The notes under the pieces were generated by a model, which saw only the letters and a list, made by a program, of their open reading frames with translations, was not told the origin of the DNA and searched no databases. From positions 2,304,001-2,368,000 of the forward strand of contig OY730476.1 in assembly GCA_963422735.1 (NCBI GenBank): a DNA stretch of 64,000 nt. Direction: 5' to 3'. Every line of letters begins with the position of its first letter. Within the stretch, counting starts at the first letter, position 1. The DNA is from Candidatus Latescibacterota bacterium (GTDB lineage Bacteria > Latescibacterota > UBA2968 > UBA8231). The position numbers and the translations under genes are program-made. This document shows, in pieces, positions 8,634-29,148 of the stretch.

Positions 8634-11294
8634 CTACAAGCCCGCGTAGATAGAAATAAAGATCTGGTTAATAATCACGGCGTCCTCGCCTCGGGGCTGG
8701 CGGCGGTCGATTTTCATGCCCGCATGAGTCGTGACCTTGTAGCCGAGATAATCGGAGATATTGGCCAACTGCAAGGCCCAGACTAGGCCGTTGAAGTCGT
8801 TGGAATCGCGCTTCATGTCGTTGAGGAAGGTCATCTCCAGCCCGCTGAGCAGGGTCGTGTGGCTGAGCAGGGGAAAGCCGAGGACGAAGCCGCCAATCTC
8901 GGCCAGCTCGGTGCGCTCGTCGGCCGAAATTAGGTCGCGGCTCTGGCGGCGATACTCGCTCTTCCAGCGCGGCTCCATCCACAGGTGCCCAAAGTCGAAG
9001 CGGTAGCTGATTTTGTTGATTAAGCCCAAGAAAAAGTCGCGCTCGCGCAGGCCCAACAGCGCGCGCTCATTGGTGCTGAGCCGCTGGTAATACAGGTCGT
9101 ATTTGAGGTAATTGGCCGTCAGCAGGCCGCGTAGCTCGTAGTCGTGGCCGATCCACAGGCTGTTGATCCAAGCGTCGCGAGCAATGAGGGGATCCTCGAC
9201 TTTGGTCGGTTCGCCGGTGCGGATATTGGCGTTGGGCAGCCACTGCAAGAGGTCGTCGGGAATGTCGTCGGTGGTGGATTTGAGCATCTCAAAGACGCGG
9301 AAGCGACCCCAAGCAGGAGTGTGGTGGTCGAGAGTCAGCAGAGCGTAGTTGGAGTGGTTTTTCTGGTTGGAAGAAATGAGGCCCTCGCGCAAGACGCCGA
9401 CCATCAGCCGCACCTCCGGGGTGAGGTGGATGCCGCCGTAGGCATTGTACCCGCGGTGATCTTTCTTGTAGGGGTAGTCTGGCAGTTCGTCGTTTTCAAA
9501 GCGATCGACCCACAGGTTGTTATTCAGGTCGATGCCGAAGAGGAATTCGGGCCGATCGACGTTGTGGCGCAGGAACGGCTCCTCGTAGTCCGGGATGAGG
9601 TTGCTCAAGAAGCGGTTGTCGTTCTGGTTGAAATCCGAGATGAAGTCGTTGTTCTCGTCCCAGCCGGGGAAGACGCTCGGGTCGCCGATCTGCCAATCCT
9701 TGCGCACAGTATCGGGAAATTCGTCTTGGTCGTCGTTGTCCTCAACCAACTCGACGACGTGGATGCGTTCGTCCTCGTAGTCGATAAAGCCATCGCCTTG
9801 GGCGGTGAACGTGCGGGTGGAGTAGCGAGGATCCATGCTATATGCCTCGCCGAAGAAGAAAAAGGGAAACGCGACCCGCGAGAGGTTCATCATCCACGCA
9901 GCGGCGGCGCGGTCGCCGCGGATACCCGAGAAGGTGGTGTGGGTCTTGGCGACCACATTGGGATACTTGGTGTAGTTGTAGCTGAGGTCGTACTCGCCGT
10001 AGAAGTCGAAGCCGAGGACTTTTTGCAACTCTAATGTTCCTCCCCAGATCTGGGTGGAGGTCGGCAGGCCGTAATCGAAGCTGACGATCTGCAAATTGGT
10101 GTTGTCTTGGACGTTGCCCTCGGCTTGGGAGACGAGCAAGAGCACGGACTCACCACTGGCGTTAAGCTGATTGTTGGAGGTGACCCACACCTGATAGTCG
10201 TTGCCCAACACGAGGCGGAACTCGATCTTTTTAATCTCTTCTTTGGTGCCCGAGGCGCGGTTGACAAAGGCCGGGCTGTCAAAGTCGTAGCGCAGGCGGA
10301 TTTCCTCGACGCCGTTGGCCGAAAGGAAGCCCTCTCCCACGAGGCCGCCCTCGATGATCGGCTCAAAGCGAATGGCTTTGCCGTTGTCTTGGGTTCCGTC
10401 GAGATAGGTGATGACGATGTCCGAACCGGCGCTGAAGAAGGCCGCGCCGCCGACGCCGTCCTCCGGGCTGTCGTCGCGCAAGACGATCTCAATGATCGAG
10501 ACGGTCTGGTTCTGATCGACCGATAGCTCGCCGGTGAAGGGATTGCCGGTAAAGCCGTCGATGAGGGTGTTGGACTGATGGGCGTTGACCATGGTCAGCC
10601 CTATGGTGGCGAAGTCGCCCACCTGCGCGGTGGTGCGGCTGCCGAACATGGATGTGGCGTTGGTAACTAAGCTCTCTTGATCGTTGGTTGACGTGCCGCC
10701 GGGTCGGCTGATGCGCGAGTAGATCAGGCTGCCTTGATATTTGTCGGCGGCGTAGTCGAATTGGATGCCGTCCCAGCGCGGCTTGGAGAAGGTCATCGGC
10801 GTCAGGGTCGAGCGGATCTTGGTTCCGGCCGTCAGGGCATAGTGGTGCTGGCCCTTGGAGTCGGCCGAGATGACCAAGCCGCTAAACCAACCCTCGAAAT
10901 TTCTGGACTTCAGCACGGAAGAGCCAAACTGCCGGGGCTGGGTCTGCGCGTTGTTGAAAACCAACCAACCCCGGGTGATGAGGTTGCCGTAGAGGTCGTA
11001 GTAGTAATCGCCCTCGCGGATGGCGCTGACGTAGCGCTGGTAGTGATCGCGGGCGTAGTTGGAGTATTCCCACTGTCGCCACTGGTACTCGTTAAAAAGC
11101 TCCTGTGGCACATACCACCTGCGCTTGGCCGGGTCGAGGGCACCGAACAGGACGCCGGGCCCCTGTGGCTCAAAGGAAACCACCCCGCCTCTTTTGACCG
11201 TGCCGATGCGAGGGCCATAAGACTGGGCCTCAGCAGCAGTGCTGCCTAGCCACAGAATGGCTATTGCCGTCCAGAATATCCATCTCCGGTTCAC
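8634..11294 (-). CDS. Large exported putative outer-membrane beta-barrel protein (family paralog P1)
   Basis: GTG at 11294 after AAGGAGG; signal peptide; shares IRSTLTPMT, VEDNDD.D.FPD, FPG.D, DYPY..DHRG and N.S.Y.GY motifs with 20570, 23226 and 26020. Confidence 0.7.
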   Translation of the reverse strand: MNRRWIFWTAIAILWLGSTAAEAQSYGPRIGTVKRGGVVSFEPQGPGVLFGALDPAKRRWYVPQELFNEYQWRQWEYSNYARDHYQRYVSAIREGDYYYDLYGNLITRGWLVFNNAQTQPRQFGSSVLKSRNFEGWFSGLVISADSKGQHHYALTAGTKIRSTLTPMTFSKPRWDGIQFDYAADKYQGSLIYSRISRPGGTSTNDQESLVTNATSMFGSRTTAQVGDFATIGLTMVNAHQSNTLIDGFTGNPFTGELSVDQNQTVSIIEIVLRDDSPEDGVGGAAFFSAGSDIVITYLDGTQDNGKAIRFEPIIEGGLVGEGFLSANGVEEIRLRYDFDSPAFVNRASGTKEEIKKIEFRLVLGNDYQVWVTSNNQLNASGESVLLLVSQAEGNVQDNTNLQIVSFDYGLPTSTQIWGGTLELQKVLGFDFYGEYDLSYNYTKYPNVVAKTHTTFSGIRGDRAAAAWMMNLSRVAFPFFFFGEAYSMDPRYSTRTFTAQGDGFIDYEDERIHVVELVEDNDDQDEFPDTVRKDWQIGDPSVFPGWDENNDFISDFNQNDNRFLSNLIPDYEEPFLRHNVDRPEFLFGIDLNNNLWVDRFENDELPDYPYKKDHRGYNAYGGIHLTPEVRLMVGVLREGLISSNQKNHSNYALLTLDHHTPAWGRFRVFEMLKSTTDDIPDDLLQWLPNANIRTGEPTKVEDPLIARDAWINSLWIGHDYELRGLLTANYLKYDLYYQRLSTNERALLGLRERDFFLGLINKISYRFDFGHLWMEPRWKSEYRRQSRDLISADERTELAEIGGFVLGFPLLSHTTLLSGLEMTFLNDMKRDSNDFNGLVWALQLANISDYLGYKVTTHAGMKIDRRQPRGEDAVIINQIFISIYAGL

Positions 11295-11407
11295 CTGCAG
11301 TCCCTCCTTAGTGGATGCACATGGTGCGTCAATGATAATCGGCTCTGTGCGTTCCAGCAATAACTGACTAATGGTGCTAGTGATTTACAAGCTGAATTCA
11401 GCGGTGG

Positions 11408-12005: not shown

Positions 12006-12422
12006 CTATTTTTTTCGAAGGTCTTCCGTAGCCAACGGTATTTTTTCAATCCCCACGCGCTTGGCCACCTCTAAGAGATCCAGTAGGTACTTATGCGGGG
12101 TCTCCCGATCGGTCCGCACTACCAGCGTCAGACTCCGGGTGCCTTCTTTTTCTCGCAAAAGGACCTGCTCCAGATTGTCCAATGTCACGAGCTGGCGGTT
12201 GATCTCCATGCGGCCGTCCTGTGTGATCGTCGCCACCAGTTTCTTCTCTTCGATAATCTGCGCCTGTTGCGCTTCGGGTAATGCGACTTGGAGGCTGTAG
12301 GGTTGCTTAAACACCGTGGTTACCATAAAGAAGATCAGCAGCAAAAAGACGCAGTCGATCAACGGCGTCATATTCAATTCTTGTTCTTCGTACAGAGATT
12401 TGCGCCTAGGCATCGGACTCAT
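12006..12422 (-). CDS. exbD: ExbD/TolR family protein
   Basis: LNMTPLIDCVFLLLIFFMVTT with the conserved TM Asp; periplasmic domain VVRTDRETPH. Confidence 0.92.
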   Translation of the reverse strand: MSPMPRRKSLYEEQELNMTPLIDCVFLLLIFFMVTTVFKQPYSLQVALPEAQQAQIIEEKKLVATITQDGRMEINRQLVTLDNLEQVLLREKEGTRSLTLVVRTDRETPHKYLLDLLEVAKRVGIEKIPLATEDLRKK

Positions 12423-12835
12423 TCCTCCTGTTCCCGCACAAAAGCGATGCCCTCAACCCCGACTTCTTTGGCTTCATCCACCACAAACACTACGTGTTTC
12501 TGGGCGCACTCGCCGTCTGCCTGAATGATGATATTCTCATTGTTGGCCTCTTCCATGGCCGTGACCAGCCGAGCCGCCAATACCGCCGGTGCCACGTCCT
12601 CACCCTTGATTTGAATCTCGCCATCGCGGTCCAGCAAGACGTTGATATCTTTCTTCTTTTTTTCCGTCGCTTCGCTTTCGGCCGGCATGTCCACTTCCAG
12701 CCCTTTGGTGTGTAGAAACACCGTGGTTACCATGAAGAAGATTAGCAGCAAAAAGACGCAGTCAATCAGCGGAGTCATGTCCGGGCCGCCTTCTGCGAGA
12801 AAGCTCTCGGACCGATGTTTTCGGTGTCTGGCCAT
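12419..12835 (-). CDS. exbD: ExbD/TolR family protein
   Basis: DMTPLIDCVFLLLIFFMVTT; IIIQADGE; overlaps the next gene by 4 bp. Confidence 0.92.
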   Translation of the reverse strand: MARHRKHRSESFLAEGGPDMTPLIDCVFLLLIFFMVTTVFLHTKGLEVDMPAESEATEKKKKDINVLLDRDGEIQIKGEDVAPAVLAARLVTAMEEANNENIIIQADGECAQKHVVFVVDEAKEVGVEGIAFVREQEE

Positions 12836-12859
12836 GGGGTTAACTCCTCCCAGCAGGAG

Positions 12860-13606
12860 CTAGTCTGTCGTGCCGTATTGTTGGCGCTGTCCCGCAGTGA
12901 TCAGAGCATTGGCAAAGGCATGCCCGTACATCTCGGCTTCTTCCAGTAAATGGTCTGCTTTGCGTGCCAGATAGCGGTACAATACAATCGTTGGGATGGC
13001 GACGATCAACCCCGAAGCGGTAGTGACCAACGCTTGGGAAATACCGCCAGCAACCACTTTCGGATCCCCTGCACCAGCTATGGCGATAGACTCAAAGGCG
13101 ATGATCATCCCCATAATGGTGCCAAGCAAGCCTAACAAAGGGCTTATATTGCCGATGGTATTCAAAATCGCCAGATTTTTGCCCAGATAGGCCCGGGCGG
13201 CTCCCTCCGTCTGCATGATCAGCTCTTCTTTGAGATCGGCCAGTTCCCGTTGCATCACCATAAACCGGCCCACTTGGCCCCCGCCGCTGGCGTCCGCTAG
13301 ACGAATGATCTCCTCGTTTGTCTCTTTGAATTCCCGCTGTTCGATCATCAGCGTATCGTATCGTTTCAACAGCGAAGCAAATACATAATTGAGCAGGCCC
13401 TTGCCTTGGTTGCACTCTTCCACGACCGCCTGTTCCCCGCCGTTGTGCAGCGCGTTTTCGAGCCGGTCTAGCTCACTTTGGGCTTCTTCCGGCGTGGGTA
13501 ATTGCTTGAAGATCCACAGGCGTTCAATCGAATAGGCAATGGCCAGAATAGCACAGCCGATTAGGGGCACCATCATCGGTCCGCCACTTTGAATTATTTC
13601 CCACAT
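12860..13606 (-). CDS. exbB: MotA/TolQ/ExbB proton channel protein
   Basis: GGPMMVPL; ISPLLGLLGTIMGMIIAF; VAGGISQALVTTASGLIVAIP. Confidence 0.92.
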   Translation of the reverse strand: MWEIIQSGGPMMVPLIGCAILAIAYSIERLWIFKQLPTPEEAQSELDRLENALHNGGEQAVVEECNQGKGLLNYVFASLLKRYDTLMIEQREFKETNEEIIRLADASGGGQVGRFMVMQRELADLKEELIMQTEGAARAYLGKNLAILNTIGNISPLLGLLGTIMGMIIAFESIAIAGAGDPKVVAGGISQALVTTASGLIVAIPTIVLYRYLARKADHLLEEAEMYGHAFANALITAGQRQQYGTTD

Positions 13607-13637
13607 GCTACTGCTCCTTGTTGGCGAGAGAAGAGGT

Positions 13638-14558
13638 CTAGTCGTCTTCTTTGGCGTTTCTAGATAACCGCTGTCCTATGCGCAAACCGGTATCGATGAC
13701 ACCGAATCTCTCAACGACCTCGGCCTTGCACAAGTGCGGCCCGATAATCTGATACACCCTGACTAGAGCGATTCGAACTTCTTTATCATATAGCGGCAGG
13801 ACATCGCCGTACTCGACGCGATCCAAGACACCGATGCCCAGATATACTTCGTCGGCCTCGACCGCTAGGACTTGGGCCTGCTCGCCGGAAAGGTCGATGG
13901 GGGGGCGCTCCGTCAGACTCGTAATCATTTGGCTGCTGAGGTCTCTGAAAGCGACATCAACGAGTTTGCCAAAGGCCAATTCAAAAAAACGCTCGGAACC
14001 GAAGTCAACCTTGAAGAGTTCGCGGAATTCCCGATCCTGTTTGCGCGGCCGTCCGAACAGATCCAAGCCGAACGGCTTTTCCGTGGAGTCTCTGAGCGTT
14101 TCAAAGGTCTCGACTATTTCTCCGGTCGCTACTCTGATTAGCTGCACTTGGCTGAGGTGGATCACTGAATTGTAGGATTTATAGCCGATCAGATTGGGGT
14201 TTCCCACTGTCGTACGACGCATGCCCAATTTCTCCACGACGCCGGTAATGACCACATCGGCATCCAAGAACTGCCCCAGCCGCACGGCCCAGTCAATGCC
14301 CTGGTATTTTTCGAACTGTTTGTTCAGTTGAACGGCCTTGACCTCTTTTGTAGGAATGACAAAGACCGCATCGTCTGCGTCCAGATATCGACCTAGCAAA
14401 TCGGGCACATCCCTAGACAAGTACCATTTCCCCTGAAAACCGGCTCGGTCCTCAAAATCGAGCAGGGCAAGGCGCAGGGTCGGCAGCGGCCCCTCGGTCG
14501 CGACCGCCATGTCGGCACCTGCCCAGGTGCAAAAGAATAAAATGGTTAGCGAACGCAA
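13638..14558 (-). CDS. CsgG/HfaB-like domain plus FlgT-C-like domain exported protein
   Basis: LALLDFED, LGQFLDADVVITGVV and LIRVATGEIV (CsgG/TolB-N-like fold); C-terminal VLAVEADEVYLGIG...GD.L (FlgT-C-like). Confidence 0.6.
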   Translation of the reverse strand: MRSLTILFFCTWAGADMAVATEGPLPTLRLALLDFEDRAGFQGKWYLSRDVPDLLGRYLDADDAVFVIPTKEVKAVQLNKQFEKYQGIDWAVRLGQFLDADVVITGVVEKLGMRRTTVGNPNLIGYKSYNSVIHLSQVQLIRVATGEIVETFETLRDSTEKPFGLDLFGRPRKQDREFRELFKVDFGSERFFELAFGKLVDVAFRDLSSQMITSLTERPPIDLSGEQAQVLAVEADEVYLGIGVLDRVEYGDVLPLYDKEVRIALVRVYQIIGPHLCKAEVVERFGVIDTGLRIGQRLSRNAKEDD

Positions 14559-14566
14559 TGGGCCGC

Positions 14567-15306
14567 CTACCTGTCCGCTGCCTCCGCTTGCCGCACTTCC
14601 TCGATTGCGATCTTTTGCTCGAACTCGAGGGCGATATCCACGGTTTCCAGCGGCTGCCCGGAGGTGTCGAATTTCAGGACAAAATTTTTGAGCACCAGGC
14701 GGACCTGGCGCACTTTCTCGTTCAGTGGCTCGAAGGCGATGATCCCCGAAAATTTCTCTCCTTTGAACACTTTTTGGTTTTCCATGTAGGCCGTACTACG
14801 CGCATTGCCCATGCACAGGTCAATGCGATAAAACTTGTTGCCGCTCTGCCCCCGAATGGCCCGGTAGTAGCACTCAAAACTTTTGTACGGCGAAAAAGAC
14901 GGCAGACCATAGGAATGGACCTCGCCCTGACCGGTATAGAGCAACGCTTTGATCGGATCGAGCAGGACTTTGGCGTAGATATCGTTGATAACCGTAACGC
15001 GAAAAACCGTAAGACGCTTGGGTCTGTAACTCAACAGCGGATCAATCCAATTGCCGTAGGTGTACTCCCCTTTGCGCGAATCCTCGGGCAACAGTGCATT
15101 CAGTTGATCGTCCGTCATAGGTTCGACCTTGACGCGCAGTCCTCTATGGCATACGCGACCGACCCGTCTTCACCCACGATATACTGTTCCTTCCCGCCTT
15201 GGGAAGTACGGGGTATCAGCTCATTTTTGTACAGAATAGTCGGCGGAATGAGAAAACTACAGCCGGACGCGAATGACATTAGGATAATTCCCAAGTGCAT
15301 GGCCAT
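14567..15306 (-). pseudogene. Lipoprotein, frameshifted paralog of 34672..35439
   Basis: Lipobox ASGC. One base is missing near 15141 (TAT GCC ATA GAG GA CTG CGC GTC versus paralog YAIEGLRV). Could be a sequencing error. Confidence 0.75.
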
Positions 15307-15314
15307 TACCTCTC

Positions 15315-16016
15315 TTATTGGCCCCGCTGGCTGAAGAAATCGATTTGCTGCTGGGCAATACATCCTTCCTGCGTCAGGGCAAAAATAACGGCGCTGATGC
15401 CAAATCGCAGCTGTGGCTCATTGCCGTAATTGCCTACCCAAGTATGGACATATCCCTCGTCGGAGTACATGGCTACTATGCGATCGCCTAGGAAAACCCC
15501 CTCTAGGTAATACGATTGCTCGGCGATGACTAAGTGATCAAGGCTACGCTGTTCGGAAAAGGTGGGAATCTCCAGTTCAGAACCGGCCGGCGGGCCGTCA
15601 AAATCGTAAAAGGTATGGTAGATCGGATGGTTGTTGGAAGTGGGCCGCAATTGGCCTTGCGCCCCCAAGGCACCGCGAAAGGTGCATCGCAAAGATGCTT
15701 CTCCCTGACTGAATTCTGTGGTGGGATTGGCATTATCGGCTAAGATGAACCCGCCTTGCCGCAAGTATTCTCCCAGGTTCTCTAGTTCGCGTTCCGTCAG
15801 TTCAAAAGCCTCAGTAGAGGTGATGTACACAAAAGGTGTGCGAAACAGTTCTTGGGAATCGAGAAATAAATGCACATCTACTCTGGCCGAGATGCCCGTC
15901 TGTTCATTGAGGGCGTCGACTAGATTGGGGATGGCCTTAGCGGTGCTGTCAAACGTTGGCTCCAGGTCATTTGCCCAGGCCGTGCCCAGATAGACGAGTA
16001 AGGACATATTTGTCAT
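15315..16016 (-). pseudogene. 5'-truncated DUF4159 protein (paralog of 33440..34675)
   Basis: Homology begins abruptly at VYLGTAW (~15998); the N-terminal TM and linker are absent; the remaining frame is open. Confidence 0.75.
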
Positions 16017-16019
16017 GAG

Positions 16020-17170
16020 TCAATCTCCACTCAACCGGTACACCACATTACCTGTCATACCGGTAAAATAATCTATAATCAGCCAGCACCCCATACAGGC
16101 AAACTGGCCGATGACCAAGCCGATAAAAAATGGCTTGCCTCGGTCGTAGATGTACCCCAAGGCCGTCACCCCGCTCGCCCCCAGCGTCTCGACCCCGAAT
16201 CCGGACACCATGAAATTCCCCGGGTTCATGGGTGCCCGCGTGGTAAAGAACCCCCCTTCCGTCACCATCCGGGTCAGTCCCAGAAAGAGCACAAACGCGA
16301 TGAACAGAACCATGCCTGTCACCCACAGTGCTAGACCCGACATCCACAGCCACCACATCATAAACCCGTTGCCACCCAGGACCAGGAAGACCGCGGTCCG
16401 GTACGACATCACCTCGTCCGTATCTTGCACCGACGCGTCATCCCTGAACGCCTTGCGCACCACCACCCTCAGATGGGAGCGGCCCATCCATAGACCGAAG
16501 AGCACGAAGACAATCATGGCCCCGATATTCTGATGCGCCAGGATAGGCACCGTAACCCACTCCATATGTTCGGTGCTGGAAACCCCCAGAAGGTTGAACG
16601 ACCCTTCCTGAAGCTTGGCCAGCAGGTTAAAACCAGATCCCCAGAGAGATGTCCCGACTCAAAAAATAAGTAAAACCGATGGTTGTAAAGTAGAGACCGG
16701 GTCGAAGTAGAGTGCTGCTGCGGAAAATTGGCAGGAGCGTATAGAGTTCGATCTTCGGAAAGACAGGATAATAGGCGTGCAGGGCCGTGATACTGCCAAT
16801 GGTGAAGGGAATGCCCACTCCAAACTAGAATAAGGCCGAGCGCAAGAGTGGCGGCAGCAAGCGTCCCTTTTCTTGCGCGATCAGGGCTAGGGAGGGCTGC
16901 ATCAGCGGGTAGAGCAAGCGCTCGTGCGTCATCCACTGGCGGCGCAGGATTACCATAGAAGCGATCATGACTAGGTAGAGTGCCAGCAGAAAGGGCAGCC
17001 ACGCCAGTAAAGACGGTAACCAAGCCTTCCAAGGGATGCCACCCGCCCCCTGCGGATTGCCCTCGTAGAAGTTCTTGATGGCCTGCTGATCCTGCACGAT
17101 CAACCAGTCCGGGGTGTAGTGCATAAACAGCTCCGCCCAGCCATTCTCCGGACTGGCATAATACTGGGCA
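16020..17170 (-). pseudogene. Fragmented DUF6785/DUF6784-like polytopic membrane (peptide transporter-like) gene
   Basis: YYASPENGW, FYEG...IPWKAW, ILRRQWMTHERLLYPL, RMVTEGG, KPFFIGLVIG; in-frame stop at ~16825, frameshifts, internal deletion, 5' end missing. Confidence 0.6.
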
Positions 17171-17790: not shown

Positions 17791-18045
17791 TAATCCTAAA
17801 TACAACAGGTTTAGATCGGTGCGACCGAACTGCCAATGGATCCTATCCAAGACCAACACCTGTTGTTGGCTGGGTCGAACCAGCTTCGATACTACGATCA
17901 ACTGGGTAAACACCACCGGGGATACCTCGCTGCTGAAAAAACGCTGTACGCGTCGATACTGACTTTCAATTTGGGTCCTGCCCGACAGGCTACACGCCAT
18001 TTTCTTCATACTTGATGGAGCGAACGTTAGATCAGCGCACACCAA
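17791..18045 (-). mobile_element. IS4-family transposase fragment
   Basis: ESQYRRVQRFF and LVLDRIHWQFGRTDLNLLYLG; cut by the IS982 end. Confidence 0.65.
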
Positions 18046-20513: not shown

Positions 20514-20569
20514 CGGATGTGTTTGGTACAACAGCTATTGGTGCCGCAACTGAGAGATTTGTCGAGCCT

Positions 20570-23224
20570 ATGCGCGCTTTCTCTGTCTTTCTGCTCTGTC
20601 TGATTCTGACCGCCGAGGAGGCTCGCGGTCAGTTCCTGTCGCGGGATTTTCGCTCGCTATGGGCCAACGAGGTATTTGAGAACTACGGCGGGGCCGGGTA
20701 CCGGAACTACGACTTCGAGGAGGAGAACCGCCGCTTTGACCTCTTTGGCGATTTGCTCATCGACGGCGTCGATATCCTCGAATTCAGCGAAGTGCGCCGC
20801 GACGCGCTTGGAGTCAGGGGCAGCTTTGAATCGCGCAGCGGTCGGTACGACGGCTTTTTCAACAAGCTCGTCATGGCCGAAGAGGGCTTTGGCCGCTGGT
20901 CGACGCGCCTGATCATCGGCGACCACGTGCGGACATATTTCACGCCCATGACCCTGAACCTGCCCCGCTTCAACGGCATCCGCTGGGACGGCTCGTCGCG
21001 CAAGAGCAGCTTTAGCGTGGTCGCCGCCCACCTGACCAACCCCCTCGAATTTCGCACTGGTGCCTTGGGCCCCGACGACGCCGTACAGAATTTCCGCGCT
21101 TTCGGCACTTCGCTTTTTGGCGGACATTGGCAGAGCCGCATAGGCGATTTTCTGCGCTTGGGCACGACCTTTGTCAATACGCACCGCTTTGATTCGGAAG
21201 CTTCGGACAAGATCAACGGCTTGAAAGGCGCGGTCCCCGGGCTGGTCCAGGGCGGCTTGAAAACCGTATTTGTCTTCTTTGCCGACGACGCGCCCAACGA
21301 TTCTTTCGAAGGGGCAGAGATCCACCAAGTGGTCATGCGAGCCGACGGCGTCCTAGTCGAGCCGCTGCGGGTGGGGCGTATCGACAAGCTCATCGACAAG
21401 CTCACCATAACGCCGGACCTGACCAGCACGATCCAGATCAAGCCCAACGAAATCGACTATCTGCGGCGCAACCAGTCCTGGCTGCAACCCGTGGTTGAGG
21501 CCAGCAATCGGCCCTTTTTCTCCGCCGTGTTGGAAGACATAGCCCGAGAGGTGCTCCCGCCCACCCGAGGTGCGCCGCTGCGGGCCAGTGGTGCCGATGT
21601 GGTCTTTTACCAATTCGCTGTGCCGGATACGGTCTCTGACATCGAATTTGAGGCCCTCCTAGCCGACGACTACAGCGTTGATGTGGTCGGTGCCGTGCAG
21701 GTGCCCTTCTTGGCCTCGGGCGAGGAAGACTTCTACTACGATTGGCACCACGCTCTGCGGGCGGAGGGTCATCCGAGCAATAGGTCGAATCTGAGCCAGG
21801 TGCGCTTCGGCTACGGTTTTCCTACGGGTTTGAGCATTATGGGTCTGGATTTCGATGTCCAGATCCTTGGCTTTGAGATCAAGGGCGAATTTGCCCGCAG
21901 CACGAACTACCTCAAAATGCCCACAGACCGGGGCAAGCGCCGGGAGCGCGACTCTTCGGTCTTTTACTTCAATGTGCTCAAGTCCCTGCACGACCGGGTC
22001 GACGCCGGCGGCGAGTGGTTCGACATTCCGGAAGACTACAATACGGAATTCCCCATATTCCAGAGTTCGGGCGTGGGGCCGACTGTGGGCGGCAGGCTGT
22101 ACCAGCCTTTTGCCCTGGTCGAGGACAACGACGATCTCGACGATTGGCCCGACGAGTTGGAGCACAACGATCCCTTTGATCCCTACTTCGATTCCCAAGG
22201 CGTGGGCCACGGCGTTTTTCCGGGCTTGGATCTCGACGGCGACGGCATTCTCGATTTTGCGGCCACGGGTTCGGACTCGTCTTTCCTGCAGTACCACGTG
22301 GAGTCACCCGACCTGTCCTTTGGCGACGACTTCAACAACAACGGCATGCCCGACCTCAGGGAGAACGACAATCTCGCGGACTATATGTACCCGCTCGACC
22401 ACCGCGGTTTCCACGCTTTTCTCAGGTATAATCCCACCTCACACGCCCAATTGCGCTTGGGCGCGTACCGGATGGAACAGCCCACCCTGGGGTTGGACAG
22501 CGACGCCGAATACATAGAGGGCCAGTACCAGCGCGACTGGCAGGATCTGGGTTATGTGTGCGCCAACCACCGGATCAAGTGGGTGAAAGACGGCATCCCC
22601 AATACGGTTTTCAACTTTGGCAGCCAGAGTTCGCTGCAGCAGGATCTGCTCGAGAACCGCGATGCAATCGACAATCTGACCTATGTCGAGTGGGGCCTAT
22701 GGACCGTGCCCGGGATGAACATCCGCACTATCGCCACCTTCAAGCATACCGATCTGAGCGACAGAGCTGCGGCCGATCCCCTGCTGGCAGCGCCGGGGAC
22801 CATTACACACTTTGCCATGGCCAACAAGATAGACTACACCTGGAACTGGAAGCGCTTTGAAATTGTGCCGCGCTTTAAGCACACGTACCGGCGCAGCAAA
22901 TTTCCCGATCGCCAGATCCCCGACAGACAGACGCGCCGGCTGATCCCGATTTTGCAAGTCGCCTACAGCATAACGCCCAATACCGTCCTCAAGACGGGCG
23001 TCCAGGGCGTCCCCTTGCTGCCCGAGCGCTCTATTGATCCGGCCAACCCCGAACGCGATTTCCGCAAAAACACCTATACTGGTTTTCTGCAGAACAGGAG
23101 CAATTACAGCGGCTATGACCTCACCATTCTCATGGGATTTTTTCGGACTTTTACCGAATTCTCCGGCTCGTTGCGTCCGTCGACGGGCTATATAGAGTAC
23201 TTTTTAAAGGTGTATATTGGTTGA
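20570..23224 (+). CDS. Large exported putative beta-barrel protein (paralog P2)
   Basis: Signal peptide; VRTYFTPMT, VEDNDDLDDWPD, FPGLDLDGDG, NRSNYSGY; ends YFLKVYIG. Confidence 0.7.
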   Translation: MRAFSVFLLCLILTAEEARGQFLSRDFRSLWANEVFENYGGAGYRNYDFEEENRRFDLFGDLLIDGVDILEFSEVRRDALGVRGSFESRSGRYDGFFNKLVMAEEGFGRWSTRLIIGDHVRTYFTPMTLNLPRFNGIRWDGSSRKSSFSVVAAHLTNPLEFRTGALGPDDAVQNFRAFGTSLFGGHWQSRIGDFLRLGTTFVNTHRFDSEASDKINGLKGAVPGLVQGGLKTVFVFFADDAPNDSFEGAEIHQVVMRADGVLVEPLRVGRIDKLIDKLTITPDLTSTIQIKPNEIDYLRRNQSWLQPVVEASNRPFFSAVLEDIAREVLPPTRGAPLRASGADVVFYQFAVPDTVSDIEFEALLADDYSVDVVGAVQVPFLASGEEDFYYDWHHALRAEGHPSNRSNLSQVRFGYGFPTGLSIMGLDFDVQILGFEIKGEFARSTNYLKMPTDRGKRRERDSSVFYFNVLKSLHDRVDAGGEWFDIPEDYNTEFPIFQSSGVGPTVGGRLYQPFALVEDNDDLDDWPDELEHNDPFDPYFDSQGVGHGVFPGLDLDGDGILDFAATGSDSSFLQYHVESPDLSFGDDFNNNGMPDLRENDNLADYMYPLDHRGFHAFLRYNPTSHAQLRLGAYRMEQPTLGLDSDAEYIEGQYQRDWQDLGYVCANHRIKWVKDGIPNTVFNFGSQSSLQQDLLENRDAIDNLTYVEWGLWTVPGMNIRTIATFKHTDLSDRAAADPLLAAPGTITHFAMANKIDYTWNWKRFEIVPRFKHTYRRSKFPDRQIPDRQTRRLIPILQVAYSITPNTVLKTGVQGVPLLPERSIDPANPERDFRKNTYTGFLQNRSNYSGYDLTILMGFFRTFTEFSGSLRPSTGYIEYFLKVYIG

Positions 23225-23225
23225 T

Positions 23226-26018
23226 ATGCGCGGCGCGAACCGGCATCTAGCCTTCCTAGCCTTGGCCCTGGCGTACGGCGCGGCAGTGGATGCCCAGTTG
23301 ATCATCCGCAACACCGAGCCGTACCGCAACTATGCGTACGAGGGATACCGGCCGTATGAGAGTCTGGTATTCGGCCGCGATCGCACACCTCAGTTCGACA
23401 ATATGGGGCAGTTCGTGATGAACGGGGTCAATGTCTTTGAACTGCAGGAATTCCGCACCTTGCAGACCACGCCCGGAAGCATCATCGGCAAGGAGCGGCA
23501 GTACGGTGACTTTCTCAATCGCCTGGTCATTGCCAACGACTCGTACAAAGGCGTGGACACCCGCCTGATTGTCGGCGATCGCATCCGCACCAAATTCACT
23601 CCGCTGACCCTCGACTTGGCGGCTATGAACGGGCTCCGGGTGGACAGCAACCTCAAGGACGCCTCGCTGGTGCTGGCTGTATCGCGCGTCGATCGACCCA
23701 TTTTCGAGGCCATCAGAAATGCCGACTTCGTGGTCCACGGCCGCGAGGGTTCGCAGTTCAGGCCGTCGTGGAGTACCTATTTGCTGGGCGCCGACCTGCG
23801 CACCAAGCGGCCGGGCCTAGACCTGGGCGTGAGCTGGGTCAACCAGTACCGCACCGACAGTTTTAAGACTCTTGGCGAGAACAGCTTCAAAGGGACCCTG
23901 CCCACCACCGGGGCTCCCCCCCTATGGCTGGTGTTGCGCGTGGCCGACCAAGACCCCAACGACGCCATCGGCGTACGGGTCCGCAGGACGGCCGTCGCGC
24001 TCAACGGCCGCCGCTTGATGCACGTGCCCGGGCCCTACAACAAACTCGACACGGGCGCGTTGCGGCTCACGGTCACCGAACACCCGGACCGCACCATCAT
24101 TCCGCCGATTTTCCGCGATTCAAGCAACGACCTAGCCATCAACTTTCCACACGTCGAGCCGACCCCGCAGGGAGTTTATGAAACTCGGGGCGAGGGGTCG
24201 CTGCTGTTCTGGTTCGAGGTACCTTCCTCCTTTGTCGACGGGCTCGATACCCTCATCGTCAACAAAGCCGATATAGAGATCGATGTGGCCGGGGATTATC
24301 TGCTCGAATTGTCGGAGATATTCGATGGGGCCTCTTTCAACCCAGCAACATATTTCTACACCGCCGGGCAGGCGCGGGGCAAGCCCGACAACCTCGACAA
24401 TTTTCGCCGAGTGCGAGTGCGCTACGGCCGGGAGACCGGGCGCACCCTAGCTAGCGTACATGCCAATATAGACATCAAGGGGTACTCGCTGCGGACTGAG
24501 TACGTGCGCAATTTCTCGTACCGCGCCTATCCGGCCCTGCTGGGCACCTTGGGCCGGTACCAGCTCGATCAGAGCCAGGCTTGGTTCGCCGTACTGCGGC
24601 GCGATCTCGGGCGCTTCAGTTTGGGCGGCGAAGCCTTTAACATAGACGCAGAGTACACCACCCGCCTGTCCGTGCAGGATGATTCGTACCAGACCTATTT
24701 CCAGTTGATCAACAGCCCCTTCCAGTTCCCAACCAATTTCCAAGAGCCCAGACTGCCGGATTTCCTCGGCCCCAACCGGGCCGACGCCACCCGCACCCTC
24801 GAATTTGATACAGTGGACGACAACGACGACAAAGACCCCTTCCCCGACACCTTTTTCCTGCGTAAAACCACCAGTCTGGAGGGCGGACATTTCATCGAGG
24901 ATCCCGACGGCATCTTCCCTGGACTCGACGCCGATTTGAATGGCCGGCCCGATATCAACGAGAACAACAACCGCATCCCAGACTACTACGAAGCCTTCCT
25001 GCTCTACGAGGTCAATCCCGACGCGTACGACTACGGCGAAGATACCAATAACAACGGCGTCATCGACGATCGCGAAGACGATTTGAAGCCCGATTACCCG
25101 TACGACCAGGACCGACGAGGGCTGCACGGCTTTGGCAGCTACCGGCCGCGTTCGGGCATGAAAGTGACCTTGGGCTACCACCGGACTTGGGCGCCCTTTG
25201 ACGGCGACCAAGCCGAAGTGTACTACGGCCGCTACGAGTACGAACGCCGCCTGCCCTTCCTAGTTGAGATCTACGCCGTCGAGCGGCTCAAGAGGGTGCG
25301 GGACGGGATTGCGGACGAAGTCTTTGGCCTGGGGCGCGATCCCATATACTTCACCCCGGATATAATCCCCTTGCGCCTGCCCACCGAGGAGGAATTGCGC
25401 CATCCGCTGGGCACATCGCGGCTGCTGGTCGATCCACTGCTGATGCGCGATAGTTGGGTCAATACCTTCTATATACGCACCCTCTTCATCCGCGTACCCA
25501 ATCTCAATGTCGAGGTGAGCCTGAAGTCGGAAAATAACTTCCAGCACCGTACGCCCCTCCAGCCGGACAACCGCATCGCCGATCTGGCCACGGTCTTCAA
25601 GGCCGATTATCTGTGGATGCCGTGGAAGCAGTTGCGGGTGATGCTGCAGTTCAAGTGGTTGCGCCAGCGCCTCGGCGACGAGGGCCAGGTACTGCCGATT
25701 GAAGAGGACTTCGTCTATCCCATCTTGCGGATGGAGTACCCGATTTCGAACCGCACCGCCGTGAAGGTGGGTGCCCAGGGGTTGCCTTTCCTCAAGAGCC
25801 TGTACCGCAACAACGCGGCCCCGGGAGTGGATTTCGACGGGGAGGACTACGTGGCCTTGGTGACCAACAAATCCTCGTACACGGGCTACCAGATCAATGT
25901 CGAAGTGGGTTATCAGAAGAGCACACGCAAGTTCAAGGACCGGTCGCGCCACGACCAGGATATCGACTTTTCGCGCGTTTTCCTGCGCATGATCGCCGGC
26001 CTGAGCCCCCTGTTTTGA
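23226..26018 (+). CDS. Large exported putative beta-barrel protein (paralog P3)
   Basis: Signal peptide; IRTKFTPLT, VDDNDDKDPFPD, FPGLDADLNG, NKSSYTGY; starts 1 bp after the P2 stop. Confidence 0.7.
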   Translation: MRGANRHLAFLALALAYGAAVDAQLIIRNTEPYRNYAYEGYRPYESLVFGRDRTPQFDNMGQFVMNGVNVFELQEFRTLQTTPGSIIGKERQYGDFLNRLVIANDSYKGVDTRLIVGDRIRTKFTPLTLDLAAMNGLRVDSNLKDASLVLAVSRVDRPIFEAIRNADFVVHGREGSQFRPSWSTYLLGADLRTKRPGLDLGVSWVNQYRTDSFKTLGENSFKGTLPTTGAPPLWLVLRVADQDPNDAIGVRVRRTAVALNGRRLMHVPGPYNKLDTGALRLTVTEHPDRTIIPPIFRDSSNDLAINFPHVEPTPQGVYETRGEGSLLFWFEVPSSFVDGLDTLIVNKADIEIDVAGDYLLELSEIFDGASFNPATYFYTAGQARGKPDNLDNFRRVRVRYGRETGRTLASVHANIDIKGYSLRTEYVRNFSYRAYPALLGTLGRYQLDQSQAWFAVLRRDLGRFSLGGEAFNIDAEYTTRLSVQDDSYQTYFQLINSPFQFPTNFQEPRLPDFLGPNRADATRTLEFDTVDDNDDKDPFPDTFFLRKTTSLEGGHFIEDPDGIFPGLDADLNGRPDINENNNRIPDYYEAFLLYEVNPDAYDYGEDTNNNGVIDDREDDLKPDYPYDQDRRGLHGFGSYRPRSGMKVTLGYHRTWAPFDGDQAEVYYGRYEYERRLPFLVEIYAVERLKRVRDGIADEVFGLGRDPIYFTPDIIPLRLPTEEELRHPLGTSRLLVDPLLMRDSWVNTFYIRTLFIRVPNLNVEVSLKSENNFQHRTPLQPDNRIADLATVFKADYLWMPWKQLRVMLQFKWLRQRLGDEGQVLPIEEDFVYPILRMEYPISNRTAVKVGAQGLPFLKSLYRNNAAPGVDFDGEDYVALVTNKSSYTGYQINVEVGYQKSTRKFKDRSRHDQDIDFSRVFLRMIAGLSPLF

Positions 26019-26019: not shown

Positions 26020-29000
26020 ATGAAACGGCAAGTGATCATCGACATTGACCAATTGGCCAAGCTCGCCTGTGCGTGGCTGGGGGCGACCCTGCTGCTGGCC
26101 GGGGGTTTGGGGGCCCAGTCGGCAGCAGACACGCCGGAGCAGCCCACCTTGGGGCCGCAGCGGCTCATGCCCAACCAGAGCTTTGTGGGGCGCTACAGCG
26201 AGACGCTCTACCAGAATTACGGCTTTGCCGAATACCCCCGGCTACCGCCCTTTACCAATACGCTGCGGCCCTTTTACAGCGATTTAGGGGATTTCCTCAT
26301 CTACGGCTCGAATTCGGTCAACTGGCGGGAGCGCCGGGGATTGGGTGCCCAGCGCGGATTCTCCTCCATAGGCGAACGGGGGAGCCACGGTCAGGCCGGG
26401 GTCTCCTTTGAACGGCTGTTCAACAATGTCATCGTGGGTACGGACGGCACCGACGCTTGGCAGGCCAAGGTCATCTGGGCCAATGAGATCCGCACTAAGT
26501 TTACGCCCCTGACCTTCAAGATGGCCAATCTCGACGGTTTGCGATTCGACATGGGCACCGAGCGGGACAGTTTTTCGGCCCTGATTTCGAGAAACCGCCA
26601 CACGGGCGGCGGCGGGGTCATCCCCGGTGCTCTCATCGGCGGGGCGCACTACGAGCGCCAAGTGGGTTTTCTCCACTTTGGCGGCACTTTTGTCAACGCC
26701 CACCAATTCGAGCCGCTGATGTCGAGCAAAGACCTGTCCTTCAAAGGGGTTGCTGGGGCGGCCCAGAACGCCCCAGCTCTGCTGGCCATCCGCATTGCCG
26801 ACGACGCTCCCGGCCTAGGGGCGACTGGGGCGGTGCTGCACCGAGTGGACGTATATGTCAACGGCGAGTTGCTGCCGGCACTCGAGCCCTTTATCGTCCG
26901 CTTGGATACGCGTGGGGACGAGCGCCAGCCCTACAGCCAAGATCTGCTCCGTTCAGGCGAGCGCAAGCCCCTTCCCCGCACCGGCAACGACTACCAGTCG
27001 ATCAACCGGGGCGCCATCGCTAGCACGTACGACCCGTACATTAATTACGCGGCCTTTGACGCGGATGTCTATTACCGGGGCTACGAGTTCCCCTTCTGGA
27101 TCGGCCATCTCTACTACCGCGACTTCAAGTTGTTCGGCCCGGATTACGTGATCAACGCCGACCGCAAGGGCGAAGACCCCATCACCGTGCACGAGGAGTT
27201 CGCCCACGAAGTGGCCGAGCGCAGCGCGGAAAACCCCGACGGACAGTTTCTCGGTCTGTACACCCGGGCCGATCTGCCGCAAGCCTTTGACGGCCGGGAG
27301 TACGGTATTCTCTACGTCGATCTGGAGCCCTTTGGCGAGTGGATCGAGTCGGTTGACGTCGACCTGTTCATCTCGGGCGATTACCACGTCGAACTGTCGG
27401 AGATCGATATCGGGGGTATACAGCCCAACGAGCCCGAGTCGAATTACCGCGACAAGTACCGCTATGCCTCCTTCTTCCGCACGGTGGCGCGGGCCGACGG
27501 TACGCCATCGCCGCAGGAGCCGGTCGAGCGGGTGCGGGTCAAGGCCGGTACGCCCACAGGGGTGCGCCTGTACAGCGCCAATGTATACGGCGTGCTCAAA
27601 GGTTTTGAGATCAACGCCGAATTCGCCCGCAGCAACAGCTATTCCCAATACGTGAGCGGTCCTCCCGGGGTGCGGGTGCCCGGGGACGCGCTCAGCATCA
27701 ACGCCCTCGACCGCGAGGCGCGTCCCGGCAAGCGCGGCACTATCAGCGACAACGCCTTCTACGTCACGGTGAAGCGCGACTTTCCTCTGTGGGGCTTCGG
27801 CGGCGAATACTTTTCCATGGGGCCGCACTACAATACTGAGCTGCGCTCTTTTATCGGCCGCGACGAAGGTTGTTGTACGGGGAGTCTGATCACCCAAAAC
27901 GACGCCCTCATCCACCGGTTGGTCGAGGACAACGACGACAACGATCGCTTCCCCGATAGCTGGTACACCAACCACGCCAGTCCGGGCATGTTCTTCTTGG
28001 GCCAGTCCGACATTGACGGCATTTTCCCGGGCCTAGACGAGGACAACGACGGCTATCCAGACCAGAACAAGAACATCAACGGCACGCCGGACGATATCGA
28101 GCCCTTCCTCATGTACGATGTCGACGCCCAGGTCTACGACTACGACCTCGACATGAACCACAACGACTTCCTCGACGCGCGAGAGAACGACACCGACCCG
28201 GATTATCCGTACGATCCCGACTTGCGCGGGCTGCACGTGTACGGCCAGTTCAACCCAGTGCCCGGTCTGACTTGGTCAGTGGGCTTGATGAATGCCGAAC
28301 AGAATGCCGGCGGGGGGCCCAGCGACGTACTCTACACCCGCTTGACCTACTGGCGTACAGTACCGGCGGTGGGCCAGTTTTTTGCCGTTGCCTCGCTGGA
28401 GGAAGTGGAGGATGGCGTGGAGGATCCGCTGAGCGTGTACAGCGACCGGGTGCTGACCACGGCCGAACTATTCGAACTCGATTTCCCGGGCTTCCAGCGC
28501 AATATCCAGCTCGCCCCCTTTGTCGAAGAGGAGCGCGATGACCCACTGCTCTTCAAGGACAGCAGATACTTGCGCTTTTTCACTGACGCCCGTTGGAATG
28601 CGATCCCCCGGCTCAATATGCACAATAAAGTCAAGTACGAGATTAATGCCCAGCGCGAGGGCGAACTCTTCGATGGCACCTTCCAGGAGAGCGAGCGTCT
28701 GAGCCGCTGGGCCATGATGCACAAGGTTGACTACACTTGGCCGCTGGCCGATCAGTTGACCCTTTTCGCCGGTTTCAAATTCCGCTACCTCAAGGAGTGG
28801 CGACGCAGCCTGGAGTTGCCCACCTTGCACGAGCGCAATCTGATCCCGCTGACCAAGCTGGAGTACCGCCTGACCAGCCGAACCCGATTCCAGCTAGGCG
28901 TCCAGGGACTGGGGTCGCTTCTCCCCTATAGCGTGAACGATCTGGCCGACGCACGCCGGGACTTCGATCAGAGCGATATTGTGTTTATGCTGACCAACGA

Positions 29001-29148
29001 TTCAAAGTACTTCGGCTATCTGATCTCGACCAATATGGGTCTCCGCCGCCGCGTCAAGGAGTTCGACGATCTGGATGTGGCTGGCGAGGCCAATGTGGAA
29101 TTTATCGCCGCCTATATAAATGTGATTCTGGGATTTGAACACGAGTGA
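26020..29148 (+). CDS. Large exported putative beta-barrel protein (paralog P4)
   Basis: Signal peptide; IRTKFTPLT, VEDNDDNDRFPD, FPGLDEDNDG, NDSKYFGY; starts 1 bp after the P3 stop. Confidence 0.7.
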   Translation: MKRQVIIDIDQLAKLACAWLGATLLLAGGLGAQSAADTPEQPTLGPQRLMPNQSFVGRYSETLYQNYGFAEYPRLPPFTNTLRPFYSDLGDFLIYGSNSVNWRERRGLGAQRGFSSIGERGSHGQAGVSFERLFNNVIVGTDGTDAWQAKVIWANEIRTKFTPLTFKMANLDGLRFDMGTERDSFSALISRNRHTGGGGVIPGALIGGAHYERQVGFLHFGGTFVNAHQFEPLMSSKDLSFKGVAGAAQNAPALLAIRIADDAPGLGATGAVLHRVDVYVNGELLPALEPFIVRLDTRGDERQPYSQDLLRSGERKPLPRTGNDYQSINRGAIASTYDPYINYAAFDADVYYRGYEFPFWIGHLYYRDFKLFGPDYVINADRKGEDPITVHEEFAHEVAERSAENPDGQFLGLYTRADLPQAFDGREYGILYVDLEPFGEWIESVDVDLFISGDYHVELSEIDIGGIQPNEPESNYRDKYRYASFFRTVARADGTPSPQEPVERVRVKAGTPTGVRLYSANVYGVLKGFEINAEFARSNSYSQYVSGPPGVRVPGDALSINALDREARPGKRGTISDNAFYVTVKRDFPLWGFGGEYFSMGPHYNTELRSFIGRDEGCCTGSLITQNDALIHRLVEDNDDNDRFPDSWYTNHASPGMFFLGQSDIDGIFPGLDEDNDGYPDQNKNINGTPDDIEPFLMYDVDAQVYDYDLDMNHNDFLDARENDTDPDYPYDPDLRGLHVYGQFNPVPGLTWSVGLMNAEQNAGGGPSDVLYTRLTYWRTVPAVGQFFAVASLEEVEDGVEDPLSVYSDRVLTTAELFELDFPGFQRNIQLAPFVEEERDDPLLFKDSRYLRFFTDARWNAIPRLNMHNKVKYEINAQREGELFDGTFQESERLSRWAMMHKVDYTWPLADQLTLFAGFKFRYLKEWRRSLELPTLHERNLIPLTKLEYRLTSRTRFQLGVQGLGSLLPYSVNDLADARRDFDQSDIVFMLTNDSKYFGYLISTNMGLRRRVKEFDDLDVAGEANVEFIAAYINVILGFEHE

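Follow-up and report, generated by a model that had tools for sequence, protein, structure and literature searches.

Four paralogous genes of a Candidatus Latescibacterota bacterium encode putative very large outer-membrane barrels of an unnamed family with a conserved gene neighbourhood

Among the large outer-membrane beta-barrels with which the proteins described here are best compared, MtrB and LptD have 26 strands and enclose a partner protein (MtrA and LptE, respectively), whereas SprA, which belongs to the T9SS (type IX secretion system), has 36 strands in a chain of about 2400 aa; the PorP/SprF proteins have some 300-400 aa. The 30-stranded barrels of SlpA, from the Deinococcus-Thermus group, come as homotrimers and have metal-binding sites among their insertions, as set out in passages of its description (PMC9388160). 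Here, we analyse four paralogous genes, P1 to P4, in a stretch of 64,000 nt from Candidatus Latescibacterota bacterium (contig OY730476.1, positions 2,304,001-2,368,000; hereafter the window, in whose coordinates positions are given; Table 1). Their products are putative very large barrels of a family without a name, and P2, P3 and P4 stand in a conserved locus whose other members code for surface proteins, a scaffold-like protein, lipoproteins and, in related loci, an ExbB/ExbD motor. We favour the view, at a probability of roughly 0.4, that the barrels are the outer-membrane module of an envelope apparatus driven by the proton-motive force, most likely for the uptake of substrates.

The original prediction, made from the sequence of the window, had placed four paralogs here, three of them tightly coupled, and this is what the open reading frames (ORFs) bear out. 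The P2/P3 and P3/P4 junctions both read TGA-t-ATG, i.e. they are genuine 1-bp gaps, and the ATG of P2 lies 56 nt past the stop codon of the upstream gene. The four proteins can be aligned end to end with about 25-27% identity (four-way alignment), and full-length BLASTP matches are far above chance (P1-P3, 2e-32 over 930 columns; P2-P3, 1e-70; P3-P4, 8e-70). The family profile, run against the ORFs of the window with hmmsearch, matched exactly P1, P2, P3 and P4. The G+C content of the region (0.57-0.62) is no different from that of its surroundings. Hydrophobic N-termini ending in A/G-Q, putative signal peptides, are visible by inspection in all four proteins; for P1, it is the start at GTG 11294, rather than the first TTG (11360), that yields a typical signal peptide. 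A Gln residue follows the predicted cleavage site not only of P1 to P4 but also of the surface protein encoded upstream of P2 and of the small exported or membrane protein encoded downstream (AEA-Q, ARG-Q, VDA-Q, LGA-Q, LAA-Q and LWA-Q); it resembles the 'Q-rule' (N-terminal pyroglutamate) of exported proteins of the Bacteroidota.

The sequence motifs noted at the outset all fall in conserved or invariant columns of the four-way alignment, with one letter to be corrected, as P2 has F and not Y at the first position of 'Y.NY'. From the N-terminus, these are [YF].NY, [FY]..[FYML]G......G, [IV]R[ST].[FL]TP[LM]T......[DN]G, G...VN and D..P; toward the C-terminus follow an acidic VEDNDD...PDY.Y..D.RG module, N.S.Y.GY and a final [FY][IL]...[AIL]G strand. 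The variable insert that had been announced corresponds to a gappy block (alignment columns ~330-560), and the acidic module is as acidic as claimed, with 26-29 D/E in about 100 residues and three DxDxDG-like loops per module, a motif known from calcium-binding repeats (thrombospondin type 3, dockerin, EF-hand); at E≤10, Pfam found none of these repeats in the module (models TSP_3, Dockerin and EF-hand). The last strand is conserved as [FY][IL]x[VIM]x[AIL]G and the terminal residues are L, G, F and E (P1 to P4), so that only P3 has an aromatic end. The ~75-100 residues that follow the signal peptide are conserved like the barrel core (in 86 sequences, G64 is invariant and N38 and G70 nearly so).

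That this is an unrecognised family is supported by the searches against named families, and P1 to P4 appear to belong to no curated one. Pfam and NCBIfam were read at E≤0.01 for P1 to P4 (Pfam also at E≤10) and at E≤1 for 52 diverse family members. For P1 to P4, neither gave anything at E≤0.01, and the only name recurring at E≤10 is SlpA_C, below its gathering score of 35 (P2, 14.3 bits; P4, 11.7 bits). Three orthologs of P3 score 20-27 bits against the same model (best, 26.6), and 10 of the 52 members match it (best, 2e-7), none above threshold; no other family recurs. These matches span only positions ~200-313 of the 656 of the profile, equivalent to the four strands preceding the acidic module, and hint at a distant kinship of the barrels to SlpA. 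As had been claimed, there is no sign of a TonB-box/plug, Omp85 or secretin signature: Plug and TonB_dep_Rec are matched neither by P1 to P4 at E≤10 nor by the 52 members at E≤1, and neither set carries an Omp85/BamA (POTRA, Bac_surface_Ag), secretin, usher or SprA signature in Pfam or NCBIfam. LptD gave no match in these databases (Foldseek TM-score to LptD, ≤0.22), MtrB_PioB gave none in Pfam and no cytochrome was seen among the window ORFs scanned; no SLH domain was found in P1 to P4 by Pfam, and the P3 and P1 models (see below) show no long helix or coiled coil. PDB chains, searched by sequence with family profiles of 4 and of 86 sequences, gave nothing relevant, SlpA chains included. Family members are called 'hypothetical protein' where their sources name them at all, and we found no description of the family or its locus in the open-access literature. 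A lead from a protein atlas, DUF6029 (PF19494), which passages of one report propose as a polysaccharide porin (PMC9603273), was rejected. Its look-alike score, from a language model, is 0.89-0.90, with 161-162 shared features where 170 mark the same family, and Pfam matched it in none of the 52 members; PelB_C was matched by one of them (E 0.034).

AlphaFold2 models were obtained for P3 (with a 55-sequence alignment) and for P1 (from the 11294 start, with a 48-sequence alignment). The mean predicted local distance difference test score (pLDDT) was 75.7 for P3 and 81.8 for P1, with values of at least 70 in 646 of 933 and 711 of 886 residues, and the predicted template-modelling (TM) scores were 0.78 and 0.79, respectively. 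Both models are almost all beta, with about 25-26 long wall strands each as counted from the DSSP strings. At E≤1e-3, Foldseek found 35 matches in the PDB for P3 and 38 for P1, all of them outer-membrane barrels with TM-scores of 0.31 or less, among them SlpA/SDBC, MtrB, LptD, the FimD and PapC ushers, TonB-dependent transporters, porins and SprA. At the top stand SlpA (8ae1_A, 7.7e-9, for P3) and MtrB (6r2q_B, 3.1e-8 and 1e-6); SprA (8gl8_A) is among the matches of P1 (E 4.8e-4), and the usher and SprA structures have TM-scores of 0.25 or less. As modelled, P3 and P1 are very large transmembrane beta-barrels, a strong point in favour of the outer-membrane location first proposed, and the structural matches would identify a fold class rather than any family. 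The 'new barrel class' of the original prediction is thus right in that the family has no name and overstated as to class, since the models are of an ordinary transmembrane barrel in the size range of LptD, MtrB and SlpA.

In the P1 model, the connections between strands alternate between tight turns of 2-6 residues and longer ones of 3-159 residues, and both large insertions sit on the long-loop side (DSSP strings). In outer-membrane barrels, the tight turns as a rule face the periplasm; we therefore infer that the variable beta domain (residues ~215-396 of P3) and the acidic module (residues ~488-632) are extracellular or lumenal and, from the alternation of turns and loops, that the number of strands is even and close to 26. 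The N-terminal extension is conserved, yet its pLDDT is below 50 in both models, and it therefore probably folds only on a partner.

Homologs of P1 to P4 were collected by an exhaustive profile search over 1.84 billion cluster representatives (clusters at 50% identity), which gave 1005 clusters at E≤1e-3; the stricter cut-offs of 1e-10 and 1e-30 left 684 and 309, respectively. Of two word-indexed searches, the second, with a 52-sequence alignment, gave essentially the same 55 proteins as the earlier one. A genome scan returned at least 644 matched stretches, 601 of which were confirmed, and the best 80 yielded the 76 loci on which our synteny and taxon counts are based. By the labels written in their records, 57 of these are from Latescibacterota, 13 from Gemmatimonadota, one each from Myxococcota and Handelsmaniibacteriota and four from unlabelled metagenome-assembled genomes (MAGs); among the loci kept, up to four come from one genome. 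Of 30 look-alikes in the protein atlas, 29 are unnamed Latescibacterota clusters. The family is almost entirely from Latescibacterota MAGs. As counted from the plus-strand members found by a greedy ORF caller, 33 loci have three family members, 20 have two, 18 have one, three have four and two have none, the last being ORF-calling failures. Apparent P3-P4 'fusions' of 1840-1850 aa (L025, L060) and a 1383-aa form (L023) were rejected as longest-ORF artefacts, in which only the C-terminal half matches the family.

Wherever two or more members are adjacent (54 runs), they stand in the order P2-P3-P4 (26 P2-P3-P4, 20 P2-P3, seven P3-P4 and one P2-P3-P4-P4), although many of the 76 loci are closely related and the 54 runs are not 54 independent events. 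In a tree made by a fast method (FastTree, 70 rows), five clades each have a local support of 100: P1-like (13 rows), single-barrel-locus (3), P2-like (17), P3-like (20) and P4-like (17); the joining of the first two was flagged as a long-branch join. All 17 P2-like rows are first in their run. Since each position has its own clade, the triplication is older than the duplication of whole loci and the three positions are not interchangeable; gene order is retained across paralogous loci at about 35% identity. The fixed order and the three old clades fit a hetero-oligomer, and P2, P3 and P4 are non-redundant and probably act as one hetero-complex.

In the window, the genes between 18312 and 35439 all share a strand and either overlap or are no more than about 60 nt apart. 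The general order of such loci is two surface proteins with a T9SS-type C-terminal sorting domain (CTD), of which one has an F5/8-type-C lectin domain, barrels like P2, P3 and P4, a tetratricopeptide repeat (TPR) protein of ~1080 aa, lipoproteins, a DUF4159 protein and ExbB-ExbD-ExbD. Related loci usually begin with a second CTD protein (FlgD_ig plus Por_Secre_tail) ahead of the conserved order, and the more distant orthologous ones end with an unknown exported protein, ExbB, ExbD and ExbD (L013, L016, L017, L020, L056, L061, L065 and L074). A CTD protein is encoded directly 5' of a barrel in 48 of the 76 loci and a TPR protein directly 3' of the last barrel in 40; ExbB/ExbD are present in at least 13, a lower bound since the flanks stop about where the motor module starts. 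Minimal loci consist of a CTD protein, one barrel and a TPR protein. The surface partners carry F5/8-type-C, CBM9, FG-GAP or transglutaminase-like domains with FlgD_ig, Por_Secre_tail or CHU_C tails. In the one upstream of P2, the Pfam matches F5_F8_type_C_2 (1.6e-5) and CHU_C (1.1e-4) are both slightly below their gathering scores, which homologs elsewhere pass. The TPR protein downstream of P4 is presumed to be a periplasmic scaffold. The DUF4159 protein has a hydrophobic helix in 47 of 47 homologs and a linker with 31% P+K+R, against 18% overall, a build (membrane anchor, P/K/R-rich linker, globular head) that resembles TonB or TolA. In exbB-exbD-tonB operons, tonB is usually third, and in L061 and L065 it is the DUF4159 gene that holds this place, directly after ExbB-ExbD-ExbD. 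When the DUF4159 protein and two accessory proteins were compared by sequence with the PDB, the only structure to come up, if any, was 4i66, of an uncharacterised DUF4159 protein.

Synteny supports a link of the barrels to the motor, TPR scaffold, lipoproteins, DUF4159 protein and CTD proteins, and we envisage that an inner-membrane ExbB/ExbD stator would transmit force through the bitopic DUF4159 protein, while the barrels would be attached to the TPR scaffold through their conserved N-terminal extensions in the periplasm. Lectin-like surface proteins, sorted by their T9SS-type CTD, would capture glycans or other polymers, and these would enter the periplasm through the barrels, whose loop insertions would act as gates, the whole being an analogue of a Sus/TonB-dependent uptake locus made of unrelated parts. 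Import is preferred because the barrels are linked to ExbB/ExbD and have partners that bind carbohydrates, because genomes have several differentiated loci, and because of a saccharolytic lifestyle, as described for Latescibacteria in passages of PMC4454575; the sulfatase, 3-keto-disaccharide hydrolase and amylase-like genes of the window accord with this lifestyle. The direction of transport is nevertheless a preferred guess.

Several observations weigh against a role in energised uptake. No plug domain or TonB box was found in the barrels, nor TonB_C in any locus protein scanned, and the constant members of the locus include neither a glycoside hydrolase nor a sugar transporter of the inner membrane. 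Every locus comes with a motor of its own, whereas Sus loci share one TonB system, and here the operon of P2, P3 and P4 is without ExbB/ExbD in cis, the sole copy being 6 kb off, on the opposite strand and behind decayed remnants. Latescibacteria single-amplified genomes also encode ordinary, plug-containing TonB-dependent receptors, again according to passages of PMC4454575, and a second uptake system is therefore not required. The adjacency of T9SS-type cargo, and a PorV/FadL-like barrel in three of the 76 loci, suit anchoring or export equally well. As to the barrels themselves, closure, strand number and lumen content are read from secondary-structure strings only. The alternating strands claimed for the last ~300 residues appear in the models, with 15-16 strands, but a beta hydrophobic-moment test did not separate P1 to P4 from shuffles or soluble controls (z -1.4 to +1.4). 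A bolder and rather doubtful version, in which P2, P3 and P4 form a hetero-trimeric platform of barrels with ~26 strands each, held by the TPR protein and energised by ExbB/ExbD via a DUF4159 'TonB analogue', would make the whole an undescribed, Latescibacterota-specific trans-envelope machine, for uptake or for secretion/surface transport, with parts unrelated in sequence to TonB-dependent transporters, T9SS or Glt.

The closest rival to uptake, which we regard as unlikely, is that the barrels are an anchoring or export platform for the T9SS-type surface proteins encoded with them, either in a role like that of PorP/SprF or as a dedicated translocon, with the TPR protein as the counterpart of PorW/SprE and ExbB/ExbD as that of the GldLM motor. 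In Bacteroidota, as a rule, cargo with a type-B CTD requires an adjacent PorP/SprF gene, and here the protein encoded just before P2 bears the type-B hallmark FTPNGDGIND and matches CHU_C. The position of a CTD gene directly before the first barrel in 48 loci, the minimal CTD-barrel-TPR loci and the SprA structure among the matches of P1 point the same way, as does the small barrel, of ~320 aa, encoded between the CTD protein and the first large barrel in the three loci mentioned, all of one divergent subgroup (PorV and FadL/Toluene_X matched below threshold; 26.3 bits for PorV, whose gathering score is 27). On the other hand, two pairs of CTD genes in the window, at 39184-43544 (~665 and 783 aa) and 54220-58674 (~698 and 781 aa), both on the plus strand, resemble the pairs found upstream of barrels and have no barrel beside them. 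PorP/SprF proteins are also far shorter than the 900-1000 aa of the present family, whose members match no Pfam or NCBIfam model for T9SS, and one to four barrels per locus, from three old clades, exceed what an anchor would seem to need.

It is improbable that the locus encodes a motor-driven envelope complex that moves surface adhesins or polymers, as the Agl-Glt and Nfs machines of Myxococcus do. The locus runs parallel to Agl-Glt part by part. Where Agl-Glt has one TolQ-like protein and two that are TolR-like, the locus has one ExbB/TolQ-like and two ExbD/TolR-like proteins; both have lipoproteins, three paralogous barrels and a giant TPR protein, periplasmic in the one and presumably so in the other; and the TonB-like bitopic proteins and surface adhesin of Agl-Glt have their counterparts in a bitopic TonB-like protein and adhesin-like surface proteins. 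The similarity is only that of generic TPR sequences, however (gliding_GltE scores 43 bits against a cut-off of 225, on the TPR protein beside P1), the barrels GltA, GltB and GltH are small, cytoplasmic partners are not seen in the locus, and a genome may hold up to four such loci among those kept.

We give an equally small chance to abundant passive porins or structural outer-membrane proteins of the SlpA kind, with functionally unrelated neighbours. SlpA is the best or a near-best structural match, SlpA_C is the sole recurrent Pfam lead, and SlpA too carries insertions, with metal sites; but no SLH domain or coiled coil was seen, the conservation of gene order across paralogous loci of ~35% identity is hard to explain without a functional link, and several differentiated loci in one genome are not what a structural protein would lead one to expect. 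Very improbable, lastly, are porins for exopolysaccharide export with a TPR partner, as in AlgK/AlgE, BcsC, PgaA and PelB, for which speak the TPR-barrel pairing that is the rule (40 of 76 loci), the look-alike DUF6029, a weak GT-C-type PMT_2 domain in the TPR protein beside P1 and glycosyltransferase domains in one upstream gene of L064, and against which stand the want of a synthase, Wzx/Wzy or OPX gene as a fixed locus member, the 0 and 1 of 52 members that match DUF6029 and PelB_C, ExbB/ExbD, which are foreign to such systems, and the 16-18 strands of the known porins of this kind.

P1 had been grouped with P2, P3 and P4, and it is of the same family but not of the same unit. Five close relatives (91-96% DNA identity) are syntenic with the window only from ~18171-18248 onward, and 16020-18250 is therefore a rearrangement scar specific to this genome; a DDE transposase fragment lies beside the breakpoint, and a DUF6785 gene is split into two ORFs on the minus strand (16020-16565 and 16825-17367). 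A link of P1 to P2, P3 and P4 by proximity was rejected, because this synteny excludes the P1 side; P1 is a separate unit, brought near by a rearrangement peculiar to this genome. Upstream of P1, the order on the minus strand is a truncated DUF4159 gene, a frameshifted lipoprotein gene, an intact unknown gene, ExbB, ExbD, ExbD, a gap of 645 nt and P1. The DUF4159 copy is truncated at its 5' end (~180 codons gone) and matches residues 180-407 of its intact counterpart at 73% aa identity; the lipoprotein copy has 69% identity and a frameshift near 15142, and the plus-strand ORF 14558-15334 over these remnants is probably spurious. With such remnants beside it, the motor module on the P1 side is therefore the tail of another, partly decayed canonical locus. 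Its proteins match Pfam MotA_ExbB (1.1e-28) and ExbD (1e-27 and 5.4e-30), and NCBIfam also matches. The 645-nt gap between ExbD and P1 (11361-12005) has no convincing gene-strand ORF, Rfam match or promoter- or terminator-like site, and scans for Rfam families, tRNAs, promoters and terminators found nothing. A hint that the P1 unit is connected with glycosylation in the periplasm comes from the weak PMT_2 domain of the TPR protein encoded downstream of P1.

Elsewhere in the window, further secreted proteins with T9SS-type CTDs (FlgD_ig, CHU_C, Por_Secre_tail) are encoded at 1360-3480 (minus strand), 4030-6114 and 36151-38061 (both plus strand). Genes of carbohydrate metabolism lie in 38340-63665, where a xylose-isomerase-like TIM barrel accompanies the sulfatase, 3-keto-disaccharide hydrolase and amylase-like protein; DUF3500, a GFO/IDH/MocA oxidoreductase, a lactonase, an amidohydrolase and a PfkB kinase are also found there. 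At 50-54 kb, the values of GC skew are strongly negative (-0.24 and -0.15).

Table 1. Positions of the barrel genes, their parts and the neighbouring genes in the window, and of the small barrels of three related loci (own coordinates of each locus)
Feature	Position (nt)	Strand	Description
P1	8634-11294	-	886 aa from GTG 11294; ORF open to TTG 11360 (8634-11360); signal peptide, conserved N-terminal extension, barrel, inserted beta domain, acidic module
P1 acidic module	9450-9746
P2	20570-23224	+	884 aa from ATG; ORF 20519-23224; first barrel of triple
P2 acidic module	22118-22408
P3	23226-26018	+	930 aa from ATG; ORF 23217-26018; second barrel of triple
P3 N-terminal extension	23292-23525
P3 inserted beta domain	23859-24404
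P3 acidic module	24813-25121
P3 C-terminal strands	25113-26003
P4	26020-29148	+	1042 aa; third and longest barrel of triple; larger insert
P4 acidic module	27922-28230
Surface protein	18312-20513	+	Signal peptide, F5/8-type-C (galactose-binding-like) domain, type-B-like T9SS CTD (FTPNGDGIND); start uncertain
TPR protein	29135-32431	+	1098 aa; probable ATG 29183; signal-peptide-like N-terminus; many YbgF/BamD-type TPR units
Small exported or membrane protein	32474-33013	+	Weak DUF5683 match; conserved locus member
Small lipoprotein	33039-33422	+	LVAC lipobox; L061 counterpart has weak fn3 match
Bitopic DUF4159 protein	33440-34675	+	N-terminal membrane helix, P/K/R-rich linker, C-terminal DUF4159 (Pfam 2.1e-28)
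Lipoprotein	34672-35439	+	FSGC lipobox; no known family; conserved member; start overlaps DUF4159 stop by 4 nt
TPR protein beside P1	6319-8532	-	737 aa; gene downstream of P1; weak PMT_2 membrane domain at the N-terminus (GT-C glycosyltransferase-like; E 5.9e-6)
Motor module	12006-14558	-	The four genes below
Unknown exported protein	13638-14558	-	Motor module
ExbB	12860-13606	-	Motor module
ExbD	12419-12835	-	Motor module
ExbD	12006-12422	-	Motor module
Decayed duplicates	14570-16010	-	Copies of the DUF4159 gene and of lipoprotein gene 34672-35439
DDE transposase fragment	17490-17777	+	Beside synteny breakpoint ~18171-18248
PorV/FadL-like barrel, L053	4410-5384
PorV/FadL-like barrel, L056	6144-7103
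PorV/FadL-like barrel, L061	8503-9480

Latescibacterota are widespread uncultured polymer degraders, and the barrels may be a route by which they transport substances across the outer membrane. The family is among the most expanded envelope protein families of the phylum and has gone without any annotation; with it, the few barrels known to have 24 or more strands would be joined by a well-populated family. The conserved locus of ~14 genes, with barrels, motor, scaffold and surface lectins, offers a concrete hypothesis for a new energised outer-membrane system, in which the bitopic DUF4159 protein may stand in for TonB; if so, this would be the first role for a widespread domain.

Set beside the systems with which we began, the barrels share with SlpA (SlpA_C; 8ae1, 7zgx, 8agd) the giant barrel with insertions. 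SlpA is the top Foldseek match of P3; for P1 it ranks sixth, with the highest TM-scores (0.30/0.28), and TM-scores overall are 0.19-0.30. Unlike SlpA, P1 to P4 have no SLH/coiled-coil stalk and, as modelled, ~26 rather than 30 strands, and P2, P3 and P4 are three old paralogs where SlpA is a homotrimer of one protein. MtrB (6r2q_B) and LptD are in the same size class, and MtrB is the first or second Foldseek match of both models (TM-score 0.24-0.31); here, however, there is no multihaem cytochrome, LptE or OstA-type N-terminal domain, and the locus is a different one. By analogy with MtrA and LptE, it is possible that the N-terminal extension or the CTD proteins are an enclosed partner. With the TonB-dependent transporters and SusCD, of which FemA and XusA, both TonB-dependent, are among the Foldseek matches, the locus has in common large barrels linked to ExbB/ExbD, surface glycan-binding partners and several differentiated loci per genome; it departs from them in the lack of plug, TonB box and TonB_C, in ~26 rather than 22 strands and in a motor for each locus, and from SusCD also in having surface partners that are CTD-sorted and not lipoproteins, and a 1080-aa exported TPR protein instead of SusD. 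From Agl-Glt and Nfs, it differs in that there is no sequence relation beyond the TPR units, in the small size of the Glt barrels and in the lack of cytoplasmic components. As in the T9SS (SprA, PorV, PorP/SprF), the barrels adjoin type-A-like and type-B-like CTD proteins, with the PorV/FadL-like barrel as a further likeness in three of the 76 loci, but no T9SS model matches them. Thus, the fold is a familiar one, and it is the family, the insertions, the fixed arrangement of three paralogs and the locus that are unfamiliar.

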